Positions 10,593 through 28,179 of a stretch of 32,000 nucleotides of DNA are shown in pieces. How positions within the stretch are numbered: position 1 is the first letter of the stretch; each line of letters begins with the position of its first letter. Below the pieces are notes generated by a model. That model did no database searches. It was not told where the DNA came from and saw only the letters and a program-made list of their open reading frames with translations. Both the position numbers and the translations under genes were made by a program. This stretch comes from Saccharolobus solfataricus (GTDB lineage: Archaea; Thermoproteota; Thermoprotei_A; Sulfolobales; Sulfolobaceae), in assembly GCF_900079115.1 (NCBI RefSeq), contig NZ_LT549890.1, forward strand, positions 2,070,001 to 2,102,000, in the 5' to 3' direction.

Positions 10593-11777
10593 GTGCATGT
10601 GATAAGGGAAACATTGAAAGGTGGTAAGGGTGAAGTTATAAAAAACCCTAAGGTCTTTATCGATCCGTTATCTGTATTTAAGGAGATTCCGTTTAGAGAG
10701 GATATATTAAGGGATGCCGCAATTGCTATTAGGTATTTCGTTAAGAATGAGGTCAAGTTTTCGAACTTATTCCTTGGATTAACCGGTACCGGAAAAACTT
10801 TCGTGAGCAAATATATCTTTAATGAAATTGAGGAGGTGAAGAAAGAGGACGAGGAATATAAGGATGTAAAACAAGCTTATGTTAATTGCAGAGAGGTTGG
10901 TGGAACACCACAAGCTGTATTATCCTCTTTAGCTGGGAAACTAACTGGTTTTTCAGTACCAAAGCATGGTATTAATTTAGGTGAGTATATTGATAAGATA
11001 AAGAATGGCACAAGGAATATAAGAGCAATTATATATCTTGACGAGGTTGACACGTTAGTGAAGAGAAGAGGGGGAGATATAGTTCTTTATCAGCTGCTTA
11101 GATCAGATGCAAATATATCTGTTATAATGATTAGTAATGACATTAATGTTCGTGATTATATGGAGCCCAGAGTTTTATCATCTTTAGGGCCTTCGGTAAT
11201 CTTTAAACCTTACGATGCAGAGCAACTGAAATTTATTCTTTCGAAGTATGCTGAATATGGCCTAATAAAAGGTACCTATGATGACGAAATATTGAGCTAT
11301 ATTGCAGCTATTTCTGCTAAAGAGCACGGTGATGCAAGGAAAGCAGTAAATTTGCTTTTCAGGGCAGCTCAGCTAGCTTCAGGTGGGGGTATTATTAGGA
11401 AGGAGCACGTAGATAAGGCCATTGTGGATTATGAACAAGAGAGGCTTATAGAGGCCGTCAAAGCTCTTCCTTTTCACTATAAATTGGCTTTAAGAAGTCT
11501 GATAGAGTCAGAAGATGTAATGTCTGCTCATAAAATGTATACAGATCTTTGTAATAAATTCAAGCAAAAACCCTTATCGTATAGGAGGTTTTCAGATATC
11601 ATATCAGAATTGGACATGTTTGGGATAGTCAAGATAAGGATAATTAATAGGGGTAGAGCCGGTGGAGTTAAGAAATATGCATTGGTGGAAGATAAGGAGA
11701 AGGTATTAAGAGCGCTTAATGAGACTTTTGAAGATAGTATTAGTATTGGTGATTTTGATGATGTGGGAGAAAATTAA
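10593..11777 (+). CDS. cdc6-3: Orc1/Cdc6 replication initiator, probably the Cdc6-3 (Orc1-3) paralog
   Basis: 394 aa, AAA+ with Walker A GLTGTGKT, Walker B IIYLDEVD, sensor region ISNDINV, the DARKAVNLL lid and a C-terminal winged helix ([12 protein letters not shown]). The sequence matches my memory of S. solfataricus Cdc6-3. Confidence 0.93.
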
Positions 11778-14640: not shown

Positions 14641-15444
14641 TTAAGAGCTATTTAGTTCGTTAGCTTTTCGAATATCCGCATAAGCCTCCTCTTCTCTCCC
14701 CAATTTCATCAACGATTTCGCTCTTCTTACGTAAGCATTTCTATACAATGGATTGATATTGATACTTTTCGAATACATATCTACAGCTTCTTCTAACAAT
14801 CCCCTACTTTCCTTTAATTCTCCTAAACTGAAGTAAACTTCTGCATAGTATGGGTTTAGATTAATTGCGATTTCTAAATCATTTTCAGCCTCCTTATAGT
14901 TTCCTAATTCTCTTTGAGCTAAAGCTCTATAGAAGTACAATTCTGCATCAGTAGGATATTTTTCAATAGCTAAACTCAAGTCAATTATAGCATCATTGTA
15001 TTTACCTAATTTAAGTTCGGAAATTCCCCGTATCTTATACACTAAAGGATCTTCGTCTTCTACTACCTTGATCTCATCTAGGGCTTTCTCATAGTTTTCT
15101 AATTTTAAATAGATAAGTCCCCTTAGTTTTCTAGAATCTTTTGAATTGTCATTTAGATATATTAGCGCGTCTCTATAAAGTCCTTGAGCTATAAGTACTT
15201 TTGCCATTCCAATTTTATCTTCAGCCTTCTGAAAATTCTCATAAGCCTCTTGTAGTTTTCCTAGTTCAAAGAGTATCTTTCCTTTTAAGGAGTAGGCCTC
15301 CTTTAGATCTGGGTTCTGGGTAATTAACTCGTCTAATAATTTCAATGCATAATTTAAGTTCTTATTCTTATATTGGGTATAGGCTTCTTTTAGGCTCAAA
15401 CTCTCACTTAATATATCAATTAATCTTTTTGATAAAATAAGCAT
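14641..15444 (-). CDS. Tetratricopeptide repeat (TPR) protein
   Basis: 267 aa made of about seven 34-residue repeats with the A-x-x-x-Y/F-x-x-A-L/I-x-x-x-P pattern (for example EAYENFQKAEDK, DAELYFYRALAQRELGNYKEAENDLEIAINLNPYY). Confidence 0.85.
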   Translation of the reverse strand: MLILSKRLIDILSESLSLKEAYTQYKNKNLNYALKLLDELITQNPDLKEAYSLKGKILFELGKLQEAYENFQKAEDKIGMAKVLIAQGLYRDALIYLNDNSKDSRKLRGLIYLKLENYEKALDEIKVVEDEDPLVYKIRGISELKLGKYNDAIIDLSLAIEKYPTDAELYFYRALAQRELGNYKEAENDLEIAINLNPYYAEVYFSLGELKESRGLLEEAVDMYSKSININPLYRNAYVRRAKSLMKLGREEEAYADIRKANELNSS

Positions 15445-15660
15445 TTTATATGACCTTGTACACTTTCTCGTAATTAGTCAGCTACAAAAATGCTGGTAGA
15501 AAGCCTTAGGCAAGGTTTAATACACCTTAACTTAAAACTGAATTAACTCTGGGTTACATCATAAAGAGAATAAAAAGTATTAAGAATATTTACTCTTTAG
15601 CCTTATATTATACTTAGGTAAGCGAATAATATAACAATAATAAGTATGGTTTAACTTATG

Positions 15661-20059: not shown

Positions 20060-21151
20060 TTACGTCTTCCTCATCATTAGCTCTGCTAGCTTATCGTTTA
20101 TATCTAAATAGTTTTCTCTAGCTAAGTTAAATAATAATGCGTATTTCTTTGCATCTTGTGAATTTATCTCCGAAAGTTCATCAGCTAGTTTGTTCAATAA
20201 CGTAACTTCTCTAATACTTTGCATAGCCCAAATATTCAAATATTTAATTGGTGTGAAGTCAGGTTCCCTTTCAGCCAGCACATCTATTCTAACTATTGGT
20301 GACGTTGTATTATATTGGTAATACAGAGAGTATATTGAGAGTGAGTCATTAAACACCTTTTTATATCGATTATAAGCCTTCGAGATTCCCTTAAGATCAT
20401 CCAATATTATCTGATTATTTATTAACGAATCCCAACTTATCCACCCTAGATATACTGGTTTATTAAACTCAGATTTTTCGAGCCTATATTTATACATAAT
20501 ACTAAATATAATATAGTTCTCTCTTGCCTTCATCAGTGCGGGATAATTATTTAAAAACTCCTTGATCAATATTCTATGAGAGAAGTTCTTTACTATTCCC
20601 ACGATTAATTTATTCTTACCCTTTAATCTTCTAAGTACTGTAGAACGATATAGTGCTAACTTATCCAGAGATAAGATATTTTCTATCTCAACATCCTCTT
20701 CATAATATGTTGGTGGATCCACAATAGGTCCATCGATAAATATCACGTCACACTCCTCACACTTCTCTATTAGACTCGTTTCTAAAGTAAGCATAAATAA
20801 AATGGATTTGTTGGATATCACGTTCTTATCGTAGTAATTCTCTATTATCTTGAAATCCTCAGCTATCTCAGATGGGACACTCTTTTTGTCCTTCTTTTTG
20901 CCTAAAATCTTCACAGCTCTAGCTAGGATAAGGGTTACATCACTTAACTCTATTTCATATTTGCTTCCGTCTACTGCACATGCAATGTGCTCAGAATCTA
21001 TAATCTCATCAAGTATTCCTATTTTTAAATCAATGCTATTTGATATTATATCGTCAAAAATTAAGTTAACTGCCATATTTATCTTTCCTCTCTCATTAAC
21101 ATCTTTGCTAGCTAACTCATTTACCTTTTTAATAATCTCATTTGTATTCAA
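20060..21151 (-). CDS. NurA-like nuclease (paralog, not the mre11-rad50 operon copy)
   Basis: 363 aa with a TTG start preceded by GGTGA 4 nt upstream. NurA-type motifs are present: ACAVDGS (Asp about aa 61), LTLETSL (Glu about aa 124), VIFIDGPIVDP (Asp about aa 140) and LIVGIVKNFSH (aa 182-192). Confidence 0.7.
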   Translation of the reverse strand: MNTNEIIKKVNELASKDVNERGKINMAVNLIFDDIISNSIDLKIGILDEIIDSEHIACAVDGSKYEIELSDVTLILARAVKILGKKKDKKSVPSEIAEDFKIIENYYDKNVISNKSILFMLTLETSLIEKCEECDVIFIDGPIVDPPTYYEEDVEIENILSLDKLALYRSTVLRRLKGKNKLIVGIVKNFSHRILIKEFLNNYPALMKARENYIIFSIMYKYRLEKSEFNKPVYLGWISWDSLINNQIILDDLKGISKAYNRYKKVFNDSLSIYSLYYQYNTTSPIVRIDVLAEREPDFTPIKYLNIWAMQSIREVTLLNKLADELSEINSQDAKKYALLFNLARENYLDINDKLAELMMRKT

Positions 21152-21837
21152 ACTTTCACCTTTATAGAAATATTTTTCTCAACAAGCATTTTTATAACCT
21201 TTATAGACTCTTCTAGGTTGTCTCTACTAATCTTGATTTCACCTTTGTCTATTAGTAATATCAATATGCTAATTTCTTTCTCATTTAGATTTATTTTTCT
21301 CAATTCATCCACGATAATCCCATACAACTCATTAAGGTGTTGTTTAGCTTGTATTTCAACTTCATTTAGCTTAGAGAGTGATCTTTCCTTGGGTATACTA
21401 AAAGTTTTTGCGTCTTTCTGAATTTTAAGGAAGTGATACAGTATTTTAGCATATAATATTAGTCTATTATTTATTTCCTCAATGCTCTTGATTTTCTCTT
21501 CTATTATCTTATTTAGGTCTTGTTCTATATCTTTCTCCAGGCTATCTACTTTACTTTTTATTTTATCTATATATCTGATTATCTCTTCAGCCGAGTTGAG
21601 CTTGGTTAGTTTCTCTATATCCGCTTTAACTTCCTCCAGCTTGTCTTCATATTTATTTAATTCGTTTATCTTTTTCTCTAAGGTCCTTAATTTCTTTAGA
21701 GACTCCTTTAGACTTTGTTTAGATTTTTCTAATTCCTCTATTGTCTCGGTAATTTTTCTATCCTCTTCTCTTAGTCTTTCTACATCCAGATTCTGTTTAT
21801 ATTGGGTTAGTCTTTCCATAAATTCAGCTAAATCCAT
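21148..21837 (-). CDS. Coiled-coil protein, function unknown
   Basis: 229 aa, almost entirely heptad-like K/E/L-rich sequence. The start overlaps the upstream gene by 14 nt and the stop overlaps the NurA-like start (TTGA). Confidence 0.6.
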   Translation of the reverse strand: MDLAEFMERLTQYKQNLDVERLREEDRKITETIEELEKSKQSLKESLKKLRTLEKKINELNKYEDKLEEVKADIEKLTKLNSAEEIIRYIDKIKSKVDSLEKDIEQDLNKIIEEKIKSIEEINNRLILYAKILYHFLKIQKDAKTFSIPKERSLSKLNEVEIQAKQHLNELYGIIVDELRKINLNEKEISILILLIDKGEIKISRDNLEESIKVIKMLVEKNISIKVKV

Positions 21838-24800
21838 ACTCTTCTAGAACCTCCTTTATTTCTTGAATTAATTGTGTTATTTTTTGTGTATTTCTCTCAA
21901 CGTTTTCTCTCAACTTAGGTAATTCTGGACTTATCTTTTCTAGATCATTTACAATCATCTCAATATTATTTAATTGGATACCGACTTTACCTAATGATGC
22001 GATTTCCTCAATTATCGTATCTTTTAACTCATCTCCAGATATTGATACGCCATTTAGTATCTCTTTCAGCAATTTGAATAATATGAAATAAAGGTTTGAG
22101 TTATCTTCAACGTGTATAGTAGCAAGTAAGTAATCGAGATATCGTTTAAACGACTCTGTTTGTCCCCTCTCATTTATCTCTTGAATTTTCCTCACTAACT
22201 TGTCCATTTGCATTTTGAAGTTGTCTTTAAGTTCATGAATTATCTCATATACCTTCTCTATTTCCTCAATTTTCTCGTTTATCTTTACATGCCTCTTGGC
22301 TTTCTCTACAACCTCCAATTTTTTGTAGATTTCCTCAACGATCTTGTCTGTCTCAATCACTGATTCTTCGGTCTTTCTTAATAATTCCAAATATATATTC
22401 GATAAATATAGATAATCATAACATAGCCTTATGTCTTTATTTTCAGTGCAAGATTTCTCATAAGCTTCTATGACCTCTCTCATTTCCTCAAGGCTTCTTA
22501 TTGCAGCTCCCCTCTTTTTAGCTGTTATGAAGTACCCATAGGTCGAGTATGGATTATCTAGTTTTTCCTTTATTTTTCTTATTTGCTCGTCTATTTTCAG
22601 ATAAATTACATCTTTATTTAAATATTTAGCAATTTCGCCACTAACTATTGACGAGTAAACTAAGAAGTCTAAGGTGGGATTTTGTCCAATTTTTTTATCG
22701 GGGCTAAAAATTTGATACGCAAAGACTAAGGGATTATTTTTATTATCTTTTCTTTTGTTATCTTGTGGACTTACATAATACATTATATAATTAAATACAA
22801 CCTCCTCTGCTTCTTGCTTGTATTTTTGCCTAATAAGACCCGCAAACAGCTTAGCGAATGAGGATAACGATTCTCCCGCTAGGTCTTCGAAATCTATGTA
22901 ATTGGATCTAATCTTTATTATACGATTACCATAGAAGTAAGTAATAATGTCATCAACAAACGTGTTGGATGTTTCTATATCTTCTAAATGGAACTGCTTA
23001 CTTCCATACATTCTAAATTTCTCATTAATTATCTCATTTACTTTCTCGAATAACTCATTAGCATTTACCATTTTTATTGATGGGTAAAATATTATCCAAT
23101 TGAATGATTGTATTAATCTCTTATTTCTAGGTATGGGAAGTTGGTTCAAGTTAAGATTATCTCTTATTTTTAGCAGTAGGGAGGATATCGAATTTTTCAG
23201 ATCTCCTAGTCTTAGTTCTATGGAATCAAGCCTAATTCTACTTTGTCCGTAGATTTTAGAGAATAGTAGATATAGCAACTGTCTTTTCTTTGGTGTGGTC
23301 ATTTTTAGTTCGATCAACGGTATTGATAGTCCGTCTAGAGTTTTGGATAGTTCTTCCTTCCTTATTTGAGGCTCTATTAGAATAAGACCGTGAATTAGCT
23401 CGTCACTTTCGTTGATCTCTTTTATTAAGTTCTTAATTTCATCCTCGTTAGCTGGATTTGCCAAAATAATAGTAATTTTCTTATTATCCATTATAAGTTT
23501 TAAAAACCTTATGTAGTCTTTGCTTCTATTTACACTATCTACCTTTATTCCTAGTACTTCCATTAAATATTCTAATGATTCAAGTTCCTTCTCTCTATCT
23601 GTAATATACGTATTCACGAACTGTAAGGCTTTATCTCTAATTTCTCTTGACTTAAACTCTACTATTAATCCTCCTATATTAGTATTCGCTATGCTCTCAA
23701 AAAAGCTCCAGGATATTGCATATGCATCAGTTTTACCGAATAGTGATAGTTTTTTTACATTCTCCTTTATTTTACTTATATCTATGCTTTCATGGAGTAT
23801 AGTTTCTATATTGTCGGATATAAATACATGAAAATCGTCTTGATAATATGTTAAAAGAAAGTCCTCAACGTATTCTTGACCTTTAGGGAACATCTCAATC
23901 CATTTTAGATATGGTATCAGTACCCCTTTTATTACATGACCTTCTAATTTCTTTATGACTAGTTTTTCGTCAGTAAATATTCTGCTCATTAAGACTTTGT
24001 ATAATTTACTTAACTCTTGGGAGTCCATTTCGTTCTCTAATTTTGTTAACATATCTAGTCTAACGGTCTCTCCTTCTGAGTTTAGATTAATTCCCTTATC
24101 CGATCTAGCCAGTTCGTTGAAAATTCTATCTACGTTAGGAAGATTATCGCATACTATATCGTTGAAGAACTTTACGTATTTTCTTCTTTCTTGATCTATT
24201 ACCCAGTAAGGCAAATCCATGTACTGTAGTATCTTTAAGTCATTTATGTTAGCCATATTTAGCATACACTTTAACATTAATAGAAACTCTAATTTAGATG
24301 GATTTTCTATACTAACTTTTCTTATTCTTTCTAGAAGTGAAGGGTAAGTTTCTGAAAATAAGTTATAAATTATGCCTCCAGTTCCAAATATTTTAGAATA
24401 TGCGCTTGGGGTCATGGAAAGGTATATTATTGAATTTCCAGTTGAATTAGCTAATTCCTTTACCTTGCTCCAAAAGTCCTTTATCTCGTTTTGATACTCT
24501 GCGAAGTAATCTACAGAACTTTCCACTTCATCAATAAGGTACACATTATTTTTGAACGTTAACAAATCTTCGGTTCGGCTTAAAAGTTCTACAAAGGGTA
24601 TCTTTATTACATTAATATTTCTATTTTTTGCATATTCCTCAATGATGTCAAGGAACGTACTTTTTCCTTGTCCCCAATCGCCGACAAGCGATATTATTTC
24701 TGGGGATTGTTTAATCTTAGATATCCTGTCTATCTCATCCTTAACTTGCTTGAAAAATCTTAATCTATTTATGTATAATGAGTTCTCTGTAATGCAAGAG

Positions 24801-24862
24801 AAAATTTGATAGATATAAGAGGAGTCAGATGCTGTTTCGCTTATTCTCTTAGAACAACTCAC
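21824..24862 (-). CDS. Large KAP-like P-loop NTPase with a long helical/coiled-coil C-terminal region
   Basis: 1012 aa with a GTG start preceded by GGTGA 4 nt upstream. Walker A is LVGDWGQGKSTFLDII (aa 59-74; the G-x-W-G-x-GKS form is typical of KAP NTPases) and Walker B is NVYLIDEVES (aa 105-114). The last 200 or so aa are predicted coiled coil. No TM insertion is seen. Confidence 0.65.
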   Translation of the reverse strand: MSCSKRISETASDSSYIYQIFSCITENSLYINRLRFFKQVKDEIDRISKIKQSPEIISLVGDWGQGKSTFLDIIEEYAKNRNINVIKIPFVELLSRTEDLLTFKNNVYLIDEVESSVDYFAEYQNEIKDFWSKVKELANSTGNSIIYLSMTPSAYSKIFGTGGIIYNLFSETYPSLLERIRKVSIENPSKLEFLLMLKCMLNMANINDLKILQYMDLPYWVIDQERRKYVKFFNDIVCDNLPNVDRIFNELARSDKGINLNSEGETVRLDMLTKLENEMDSQELSKLYKVLMSRIFTDEKLVIKKLEGHVIKGVLIPYLKWIEMFPKGQEYVEDFLLTYYQDDFHVFISDNIETILHESIDISKIKENVKKLSLFGKTDAYAISWSFFESIANTNIGGLIVEFKSREIRDKALQFVNTYITDREKELESLEYLMEVLGIKVDSVNRSKDYIRFLKLIMDNKKITIILANPANEDEIKNLIKEINESDELIHGLILIEPQIRKEELSKTLDGLSIPLIELKMTTPKKRQLLYLLFSKIYGQSRIRLDSIELRLGDLKNSISSLLLKIRDNLNLNQLPIPRNKRLIQSFNWIIFYPSIKMVNANELFEKVNEIINEKFRMYGSKQFHLEDIETSNTFVDDIITYFYGNRIIKIRSNYIDFEDLAGESLSSFAKLFAGLIRQKYKQEAEEVVFNYIMYYVSPQDNKRKDNKNNPLVFAYQIFSPDKKIGQNPTLDFLVYSSIVSGEIAKYLNKDVIYLKIDEQIRKIKEKLDNPYSTYGYFITAKKRGAAIRSLEEMREVIEAYEKSCTENKDIRLCYDYLYLSNIYLELLRKTEESVIETDKIVEEIYKKLEVVEKAKRHVKINEKIEEIEKVYEIIHELKDNFKMQMDKLVRKIQEINERGQTESFKRYLDYLLATIHVEDNSNLYFILFKLLKEILNGVSISGDELKDTIIEEIASLGKVGIQLNNIEMIVNDLEKISPELPKLRENVERNTQKITQLIQEIKEVLEEYGFS

Positions 24863-27949: not shown

Positions 27950-27987
27950 TTTTCCTGATATTGGTATTACTATTGGGTTAAATCTTG

Positions 27988-27997
27988 ATTATATAAT
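27988..27997 (-). promoter_or_regulatory. Candidate TATA box for the six-gene operon (palindromic ATTATATAAT; could also serve the divergent gene)
   Basis: An AT palindrome centred about 44 nt upstream of the ATG at 27949. This implies a short leader containing AGGA. Confidence 0.3.
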
Positions 27998-28179
27998 AAT
28001 ACTACTTGTTTTCTTACGTTCTCGCTAATGGAAAATGCAATTTCGTATATTACATCAGTGAAACAACCCTTCATCACGCTTCAGTTAAGGTTGGTTTCCT
28101 CATATATTGTAATCATTGTTTTCAGTTGCTATTATCACTTACGCTCCCCTGCCTGTTAGATATTAAGCATCTAGTTATT

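Follow-up and report, generated by a model that had tools for sequence, protein, structure and literature searches.

The locus considered here raises the question of what two orphan proteins do between a HerA-like translocase and a NurA-like nuclease. It lies in Saccharolobus solfataricus, in a 32,000-nucleotide (nt) stretch that we call the window (positions 2070001-2102000 of a single-contig, 3.03-Mb genome, G000:C1), where six co-oriented, tightly packed open reading frames (ORFs) on the minus strand run from a TGT-like gene, through genes for a DUF5591 protein, a HerA paralogue, a 1012-aa P-loop ATPase and a 229-aa protein, to a NurA-like gene (Table 1; coordinates are positions in the window unless genome positions are named). 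The initial annotation had read the two genes between herA and nurA as a replacement for mre11-rad50 in a DNA-end-repair operon. Our analysis points elsewhere, in that the operon is most likely a restriction-modification-like (R-M-like) immune system and not a variant DNA-repair operon. We put at roughly 55% the probability that the ATPase, with its modelled AAA+ head, and the 229-aa protein, a predicted helical hairpin, form the recognition module of this HerA-based defence system, as two subunits of its dispensable "restriction" half that act as sensor and loader of a 7-deazaguanine-linked HerA-NurA module.

The outline of the operon does recall the canonical herA-mre11-rad50-nurA operon. 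The outer genes match the same Pfam families (PF01935, E 2.9e-37, for the HerA-like protein; PF09376, E 3.3e-17, for the NurA-like protein) in the same order, as the initial annotation had stated, and one of the two middle genes encodes a large ATPase with a helical tail. Both middle ORFs are real genes under purifying selection, because their dN/dS against a congeneric orthologue is low (0.079 for the ATPase and 0.086 for the 229-aa protein). However, the canonical operon is intact in the same genome (genome 2133683-2139493), ~40 kb from the window operon, so that the idea of a replacement reduces to a positional and functional analogy. Because the two coexist, the window operon is a paralogous HerA-NurA module rather than a variant of the repair operon. 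The canonical operon is essential in S. islandicus, whereas the paralogous operon is dispensable (PMC6249222 supplements) and is linked to a TGT/ArcS2 pair.

Comparison of the two loci, which the initial annotation had proposed as a check, shows how far they have diverged. The HerA paralogue and the genome's canonical HerA share 27% identity, and the paralogue is not the repair equivalog because its score against HerA_Thermprot, its best NCBIfam model, is far below the cut-off (98.7 bits against 800); the operon NurA is barely alignable to the genome's other NurA copies. The catalytic residues of both proteins are conserved. Walker A (G160-S167) and Walker B (I403 E404 E405) of the HerA paralogue are maintained in 24 orthologues, which predicts an active hexameric DNA translocase, and D61, E124, D140 and D290 of the NurA-like protein are invariant in 24 orthologues, two distant lineages included. 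Five NurA matches were detected in the genome, each with a HerA match next to it, and mre11-rad50 lies between the two in one pair only. The HerA-NurA pairs are found at genome positions ~405312-406962, 1244061-1246353, 2133683-2139493 and 2164826-2167137, in addition to the pair in the window.

The setting of the two proteins is better described by the two co-oriented genes directly upstream of herA, which, like the canonical operon, were absent from the initial account. They encode a TGT-like protein that lacks a PUA domain and matches TgtA weakly (NCBIfam), and a DUF5591 protein (PF17884, E 2.2e-19). In place of a DNA-end-repair setting, perfect co-occurrence, essential modification genes and viral copies argue for a unit that includes this DNA-type transglycosylase pair. 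The order HerA-ATPase-small ORF-NurA is syntenic in 18/18 Sulfolobaceae loci from 8 genera, with the TGT-like/DUF5591 pair adjoining the four-gene block in 11 of the 18, and related clusters occur in two distant lineages; the large protein is thus no unrelated housekeeping protein lacking a HerA/NurA association, a possibility that the initial annotation had named as fatal to its proposal. The ATPase and the TGT-like gene are present in the identical 30 of 47 Sulfolobaceae genomes and both absent from the other 17, with no discordant genome, in a tally that compares the ATPase with the TGT-like gene only, not with the ArcS2-like partner, and in which related genomes are not independent samples. 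The co-occurrence holds where the two genes are far apart or on different contigs (for example in G129 and G056), and in G127, whose genus is positive otherwise, the TGT-like gene, the ATPase and the HerA paralogue are missing together. This joint loss and the unlinked cases are informative despite the kinship of the genomes.

Both distant clusters carry the pair as well. One (L071) has the order DUF5591, TGT-like, HerA, 1460-aa ATPase relative, NurA. The other (L132; G639:C19, 1825-10667), from a distant member of the Thermoproteota, encodes NurA (374 aa), HerA (570 aa), a 1407-aa protein with the Walker A motif GEWGEGKT, a DUF5591-like protein (249 aa) and a TGT-like protein (343 aa), in that order. 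In neither is there a separate small gene, and in both the ATPase is ~400 residues longer.

Genetic data from S. islandicus divide the six genes into two groups. The orthologue sets are M164_0014 to M164_0019 in strain M.16.4, SiRe_0014 to SiRe_0019 in REY15A and SSO2197 to SSO2202 in S. solfataricus, and those of S. tokodaii are ST0765, ST0763 and ST0762, with ST1683 and ST1684 unlinked (PMC6249222, Supplementary Data 2); we tied the orthologue sets to the window by flanking gene order and by gene lengths of 1092, 690, 3039 and 1614 bp, while the modification genes are of slightly unequal size (567 and 885 bp in M.16.4, compared with 591 and 873 bp in the window). In transposon insertion sequencing (Tn-seq) of M.16.4, M164_0014 to M164_0017 received 19, 9, 17 and 24 unique insertions and were called non-essential (PMC6249222, Supplementary Data 2 and 8). 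M164_0018 and M164_0019, with 0 and 1 insertions, log2 fold changes of -5.7 and -8.5 and adjusted P values of 0.016 and 1e-4, were called essential, although the same table lists no best match for either in S. acidocaldarius or M. sedula (PMC6249222). Because related genera lack orthologues and a canonical tRNA aTGT is encoded elsewhere in the genome, this essentiality is probably conditional, and conditional essentiality is what one expects of a modification enzyme that guards against a co-resident nuclease. Non-essential while the modification pair is essential, the ATPase, the hairpin protein, HerA and NurA thus fall on the restriction side; the ATPase and the small protein are presumably not needed for modification, because otherwise they would be essential too.

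The same data bear on an alternative that we consider unlikely, namely that the four genes encode accessory factors of modification itself, which might, for example, open, translocate or nick DNA for guanine exchange, much as DpdB assists DpdA. Bacterial DpdA needs the ATPase DpdB for preQ0 insertion (PMC12839542), the six operon proteins include no DpdB or DpdC homologue, and co-occurrence and synteny fit this explanation equally well. Yet accessory factors should share the essentiality of the TGT pair, whereas the four genes tolerate 9-24 insertions. Base exchange needs no active nuclease, yet NurA D61, E124 and D140 are conserved, and viruses carry the TGT gene alone, with or without ArcS2.

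These viral copies form a further part of the evidence. The TGT-like protein shares 70% identity with an STSV1/STSV2 protein called DpdA in PMC10516641, and the DUF5591 protein is 60% identical to its counterpart in STSV1/2/4, where the partner gene adjoins the TGT-like gene in the same order as in the host. Among virus records, homologues of the TGT-like protein are confined to 35 from Sulfolobales viruses, those of rudiviruses being 37-40% identical, while our search of virus records returned none that encodes a homologue of the ATPase. The STSV1/STSV2 copies stand alone without HerA, ATPase or NurA, and so bear on the neighbours and not on the ATPase and the hairpin protein themselves. The STSV2 pair has been named DpdA/ArcS2, and dCDG has been detected in STSV2 DNA (0.04% of G), its origin being left unexplained; the STSV2 host was said to be without Q/G+ pathway genes (PMC10516641). 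We find the full six-gene cluster in S. tengchongensis, the species recorded as STSV host (CP146016.1; TGT-like/DUF5591 pair at L134 3654-5097). Viral marking genes are what host restriction of unmarked DNA would lead one to expect. Furthermore, median identity to the window proteins across Sulfolobaceae is 39% for the ATPase, 30% for the hairpin protein and 39% for NurA, against 63% for HerA and 56 and 60% for the modification pair; the lower conservation of the first three fits conflict-exposed components, though dN/dS is low everywhere. Expression also counts for this reading, in that Csa3a overexpression raises SiRe_0014 and SiRe_0016, the second of which is annotated "SMC-like" in that study (PMC5587795).

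A canonical 510-aa tRNA aTGT is encoded at genome positions 235522-236502, and there is a QueC match at 14924-15550; preQ0 supply and a separate tRNA transglycosylase are therefore present. The QueC match lies within a 468-aa open frame, a length that would fit a fused GAT-QueC.

A specialised HerA-NurA paralogue for repair or replication-fork processing, in which the ATPase and hairpin protein recognise a lesion or structure and the TGT pair are neighbouring tRNA enzymes, seems to us somewhat more doubtful than accessory modification factors. In its favor, the HerA paralogue is nearest the repair type by both its best NCBIfam model and its identity to the canonical copy, the locus, with an Orc1/Cdc6 gene ~8 kb away, is chromosomal and syntenic, and SiRe_0014 and SiRe_0016 were listed among "DNA repair" genes (PMC5587795). 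However, neighbourhood alone cannot explain perfect co-occurrence with a TGT gene that is unlinked in some genomes, nor why the same gene set recurs in distant lineages. The TGT pair is moreover PUA-less and orthologous to viral DNA-modifying DpdA/ArcS2, and the genome has a canonical tRNA aTGT at another site.

We turn to the two proteins themselves. The 1012-aa protein carries a Walker A motif at residues 61-69 (GDWGQGKST) and a Walker B motif at residues 107-115 (VYLIDEVES), of which W63, G64, G66 and K67 and D111 and E112 are invariant in an alignment of 19 homologues with 37-88% identity (A1). S149, T151, R179 and R226 are conserved in the same alignment and are candidates for sensor 1 (S149/T151), arginine finger (R179) and lid arginine (R226). 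An AlphaFold2 model (pLDDT 84.9, pTM 0.57) places a P-loop alpha/beta core with a helical lid at ~50-260, two alpha/beta domains at ~270-545, a helical domain at ~553-790 and an all-helical bundle at 791-1008. In Foldseek searches of the PDB, AAA+ proteins are the best matches to the head (E 2e-4 to 2e-3, probability about 1.0), among them Hda (5x06_E, TM-target 0.56), RFC (2chg_A, 0.54), DnaA, RuvB, Cdc48 and ClpC, and a structure search of BFVD returned identical AAA+ classes. On this model, the protein combines an ATPase head of AAA+ fold, whose Walker A is of the KAP type, with a tail that forms a helical bundle. Because a Foldseek query with the complete model gave AAA+ matches only, the middle and C-terminal domains, which might hold an inactive REase or a wHTH insert, match no recognised fold; a sequence search of the PDB yielded coiled-coil noise only.

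This architecture agrees with some of what had been said of the protein and not with the rest. The initial annotation called it KAP-like, and Pfam KAP_NTPase (PF07693) does score 20.7 bits against a cut-off of 20, while hhalign against bacterial KAP proteins gives a probability of 97%. However, the Pfam match covers residues 52-101 and profile positions 18-67 of 293, and in hhalign only the Walker A region aligns, the register being lost thereafter. Like KAP NTPases, the ATPase has a Walker A of the form xWGxGK[ST] and a Walker B that is acidic (hhhDE), but its K67 and D111 are ~40 residues apart, whereas in the bacterial KAP proteins used for comparison IIDELDRCRP follows Walker A at a distance of ~150 residues; its Walker B, LIDEVES, is not of the DELDR type, and it has neither "DELDRC" nor transmembrane helices. 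We rejected true KAP membership on the grounds that only the Walker A strand and helix match and that the long KAP insert is absent. The C-terminus described as long coiled coil is indeed all-helical, but its longest helix has 49 residues, and the model shows no long arms, contrary to the proposed ATPase with coiled-coil arms.

Rad50/SMC identity was likewise rejected, on the basis of contiguous Walker A and B motifs, the absence of a zinc hook and an ABC signature, and the predicted AAA+ rather than ABC fold. The 1012-aa protein contains no CxxC and no [LFY]SGG motif and matches none of the NCBIfam Rad50 models. Neither it nor the 229-aa protein matches Rad50 or Mre11 families above noise in Pfam or NCBIfam, and Mre11 identity was rejected for both since no phosphoesterase match was obtained at E <= 0.1; the model of the 229-aa protein is, moreover, entirely helical. 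Thus, the earlier view that the middle genes are not Mre11 or Rad50 homologues stands, and the large protein did not turn out to be the recognisable Rad50/SMC homologue that would have undone it; unlike the canonical pair, the window proteins have no zinc hook, long arms or phosphoesterase. The BrxC_BrxD family scores 15.5 bits for the ATPase, below its threshold of 22.2.

The ATPase family is tiny, with 19 clusters among 5.8 billion proteins and 16 profile-search matches among 1.84 billion representatives. All relatives are from Sulfolobaceae save the 1460-aa protein, which is metagenomic, and a word-based search starting from the latter found nothing further. A congeneric genome (G133:C1:1956061-1956252) has a second, incomplete copy of the ATPase gene, corresponding to residues 115-176 with 59% identity within a 117-aa frame, which is probably a pseudogene remnant.

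The 229-aa protein was modelled with pLDDT 88.8 and pTM 0.69 as helices 3-60 and 83-136 (~55 residues each) joined via a short helix, followed by a loop, a helix at 154-181 and a small C-terminal domain. The initial annotation had described it as pure coiled coil; the model predicts a helical hairpin that also has a small conserved C-terminal domain, and this domain, with the motif DKGEIKIxKxN...L.EKG, is the best-conserved part of the protein (alignment A2). Foldseek, run on this model as on the ATPase as the initial annotation had suggested, found nothing similar in the PDB (best E 0.79). Matches to Pfam HTH_5 and PADLOC JetC/LmuB were discarded as low-complexity helical noise. An ORF of 208-268 aa with the same C-terminal motif lies between ATPase and NurA in 18/18 Sulfolobaceae loci, and its stop and start codons always overlap those of its neighbours. 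The C-terminus of the 1460-aa relative aligns weakly to the hairpin C-terminal domain, the aligned parts being equally far from the ends of their proteins (hhalign E 0.011, 36 columns), and BLAST between the two proteins is not significant. With low confidence, the sequences suggest that the ATPase and hairpin protein of Sulfolobaceae are probably a split version of one giant ATPase.

The fold of the ATPase head, which is like that of Hda, DnaA and RFC, also suits an explanation in terms of cell-cycle chromosome maintenance, with origin-proximal DNA marking, FtsK/HerA-type translocation and the AAA+ protein as an Orc/Hda-like regulator. An Orc1/Cdc6 gene (Cdc6_C, Cdc6_lid and AAA domains; 10593-11777, plus strand), the positional orthologue of M164_0002/SSO2184, is ~8 kb away from the operon on its NurA side, so that the operon is presumably close to a replication origin. 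Furthermore, when aCcr1 is overexpressed, sire_0018/0019 are down ~7-fold and belong, with cdvA and csa3a, to the most strongly repressed genes (PMC9976878), and aCcr1, aCcr2 and aCcr3 bind the promoter of sire_0018 (PMC13199686). We nonetheless judge this explanation improbable, below the repair alternative. The alignment A1 has no profile relationship to the window's own Orc1/Cdc6 (hhalign E 0.42), the four genes are dispensable in culture, and the viral copies of the modification genes would go unexplained. In addition, S. acidocaldarius and Metallosphaera have the same cell cycle as the system-positive Sulfolobaceae, and the system is absent from them. Least probable of all is a selfish, toxin-antitoxin-like addiction module, with the nuclease complex as toxin and the DNA mark as antidote, fixed in part of the Sulfolobaceae without antiviral benefit: the Tn-seq pattern of essential antidote and dispensable toxin and the stable vertical inheritance suit it, but all components, "toxin" genes included, are under strong purifying selection over genus-level divergence, and the repeated carriage of antidote genes by viruses implies viral DNA as a target of the nuclease side.

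Returning to the R-M-like reading, a sequence of steps may be envisaged. The TGT/ArcS2 pair would write a 7-deazaguanine mark into host DNA, comparable to the dCDG of STSV2. The AAA+ ATPase would oligomerise via a trans-acting arginine, with the hairpin protein being in effect a detached C-terminal extension of it, and the complex of the two would inspect DNA and tell marked from unmarked. On unmarked DNA, it would load or license the HerA hexamer and the NurA nuclease, which would go on to degrade this DNA in a processive manner. In this way, the ATPase and hairpin protein would hold the place of Mre11-Rad50 as substrate-recognition partner of HerA-NurA, non-homologous and with a different task; by analogy, a division of labour like that of the repair operon, between a recognition complex and a motor-nuclease, is plausible. 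The wider scenario of a chromosomally fixed and so far undescribed immune system of Sulfolobaceae, in which cell-cycle-regulated DpdA/ArcS2 marks host DNA, the AAA+/hairpin pair reads the mark and licenses HerA-NurA against unmarked DNA, and STSV and rudiviruses escape by way of their own marking genes, we regard as an even bet.

Several points weigh against this interpretation. The role of sensor or loader is pure inference on our part, and no DNA-binding or modification-reading domain was identified in the ATPase or the hairpin protein. The essentiality of the TGT pair may have another cause. Inheritance of the locus is vertical, within a syntenic core region, and several genera have it in every species sampled, which is unusual for defence because defence systems are normally patchy and island-borne. 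Homology between the 1407-aa protein of the distant cluster and the Sulfolobaceae ATPase is not significant, the shared features being the Walker A flavour and a YxxTxKERG-like motif only, and the evidence for an ATPase-hairpin fusion is statistically weak.

The operon may be compared with known systems in which marking and translocation are combined. Bacterial Dpd (dpdA-K) likewise joins a DpdA-type transglycosylase to a multi-gene ATPase/nuclease module, and the logic proposed here, 7-deazaguanine self-marking, is shared with it. In the window operon, by contrast, the partner enzyme is an ArcS-core (DUF5591) protein and the proposed effector is HerA-NurA with an orphan AAA+ ATPase and a hairpin protein; PADLOC placed none of the six proteins in a Dpd family (DpdB, DpdC, DpdD-K), and at the level of proteins the relationship is limited to the DpdA-type enzyme, by way of its STSV2 homologue. 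HerA/FtsK "capture" systems, known from computational work as DndFGH relatives (PMC10853773) and as BREX-related capture or BRC systems (PMC12839542), combine a HerA/FtsK translocase with a large AAA+ protein (Orc/Cdc6- or BrxC-like), a nuclease and a small helical or wHTH protein that evolves fast, and BRC systems sometimes include a TGT (PMC12839542), as the window operon does. However, the nuclease here is NurA, which is mentioned in neither PMC10853773 nor PMC12839542, the operon lacks a REase, and the ATPase sequence matches neither BrxC nor DUF6079 significantly. Nor did Pfam and PADLOC return a PglZ, STAND NTPase, DUF4007 or GNAT match for the operon proteins. In the literature, of which our journal coverage is incomplete, our searches brought up no publication that treats SSO2197-2202 or the arCOG numbers in Table 1, or that links NurA with deazaguanine.

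If the R-M-like reading is correct, the orphan archaeal families arCOG07313 and arCOG08073 would each gain a function, and the HerA-NurA resection machine would prove to be re-used for immunity with a non-homologous recognition partner. The reading would explain why two "translation" genes scored essential in S. islandicus though missing from related genera (PMC6249222), account for the dCDG and DpdA/ArcS2 of STSV2 (PMC10516641), and explain the presence of a "tRNA" transglycosylase in so many Sulfolobales viruses. A 7-deazaguanine R-M-like system in a genetically tractable archaeon would also be directly testable, since strains, Tn-seq data and the viruses SIRV2 and STSV2 exist.

Table 1. Genes and sequence elements of the six-gene operon (window positions) and of the canonical repair operon (genome positions)
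Feature	Position	Strand	Remarks
TGT/DpdA-like transglycosylase, 290 aa	27077-27949	-	arCOG00996, SSO2202, SiRe_0019, M164_0019
DUF5591 / ArcS-core (ArcS2-like) protein, 196 aa	26503-27093	-	arCOG00995, SSO2201, SiRe_0018, M164_0018
HerA paralogue, 537 aa	24867-26480	-	SSO2200, SiRe_0017, M164_0017
P-loop ATPase, 1012 aa	21824-24862	-	GTG start; arCOG07313, SSO2199, SiRe_0016, M164_0016
Helical-hairpin protein (predicted), 229 aa	21148-21837	-	ATG start; arCOG08073, SiRe_0015, M164_0015
NurA-like nuclease paralogue, 363 aa	20060-21151	-	arCOG07312, SSO2197, SiRe_0014, M164_0014
TATA-like element TTTAAAAA	26500-26507	-	20-27 nt upstream of herA ATG, within 3' end of DUF5591 gene
AGTAATACC, fits published aCcr1-box consensus	27963-27971	-	between TATA-like element (~27990-28000) and TGT-like start codon
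Canonical herA	near 2138861-2139493 (genome)		profile match
Canonical rad50	2134618-2137206 (genome)		777 bits to Sulfolobales Rad50 model
Canonical nurA	2133683-2134459 (genome)		profile match

Distant homologues of the TGT-like protein (30-42% identity) occur in all sampled genomes of the Thermoproteota families f28 (23/23), f4 (5/5), f6 (3/3) and f7 (3/3), with the loci examined being L120-L123 and L126-L131, and in all of family f36 (12/12). In three f36 loci (L124 9264-11982, L125 7439-10075 and L133 7699-10242), the TGT-like gene is directly beside a HerA-like gene, and no NurA, DUF5591 or giant ATPase was detected nearby; this may be a different, housekeeping-like pair.

The packing of the operon leaves little room between its genes, with a 4-nt gap between HerA and ATPase genes, overlaps of 14 nt between ATPase and hairpin genes and 4 nt between hairpin and NurA genes, and a spacer of 22 nt from the DUF5591 gene to herA. 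The position of TTTAAAAA suggests a candidate internal promoter for a leaderless herA-ATPase-hairpin-nurA transcript. The aCcr1-box match AGTAATACC occurs once in the window, and since one match or more turns up in 47 of 100 shuffled sequences, it is not significant alone. In a congeneric genome (G226, L069 5294-6386), ~1.1 kb separates the DUF5591 gene from herA, representing an insertion or an expanded spacer.

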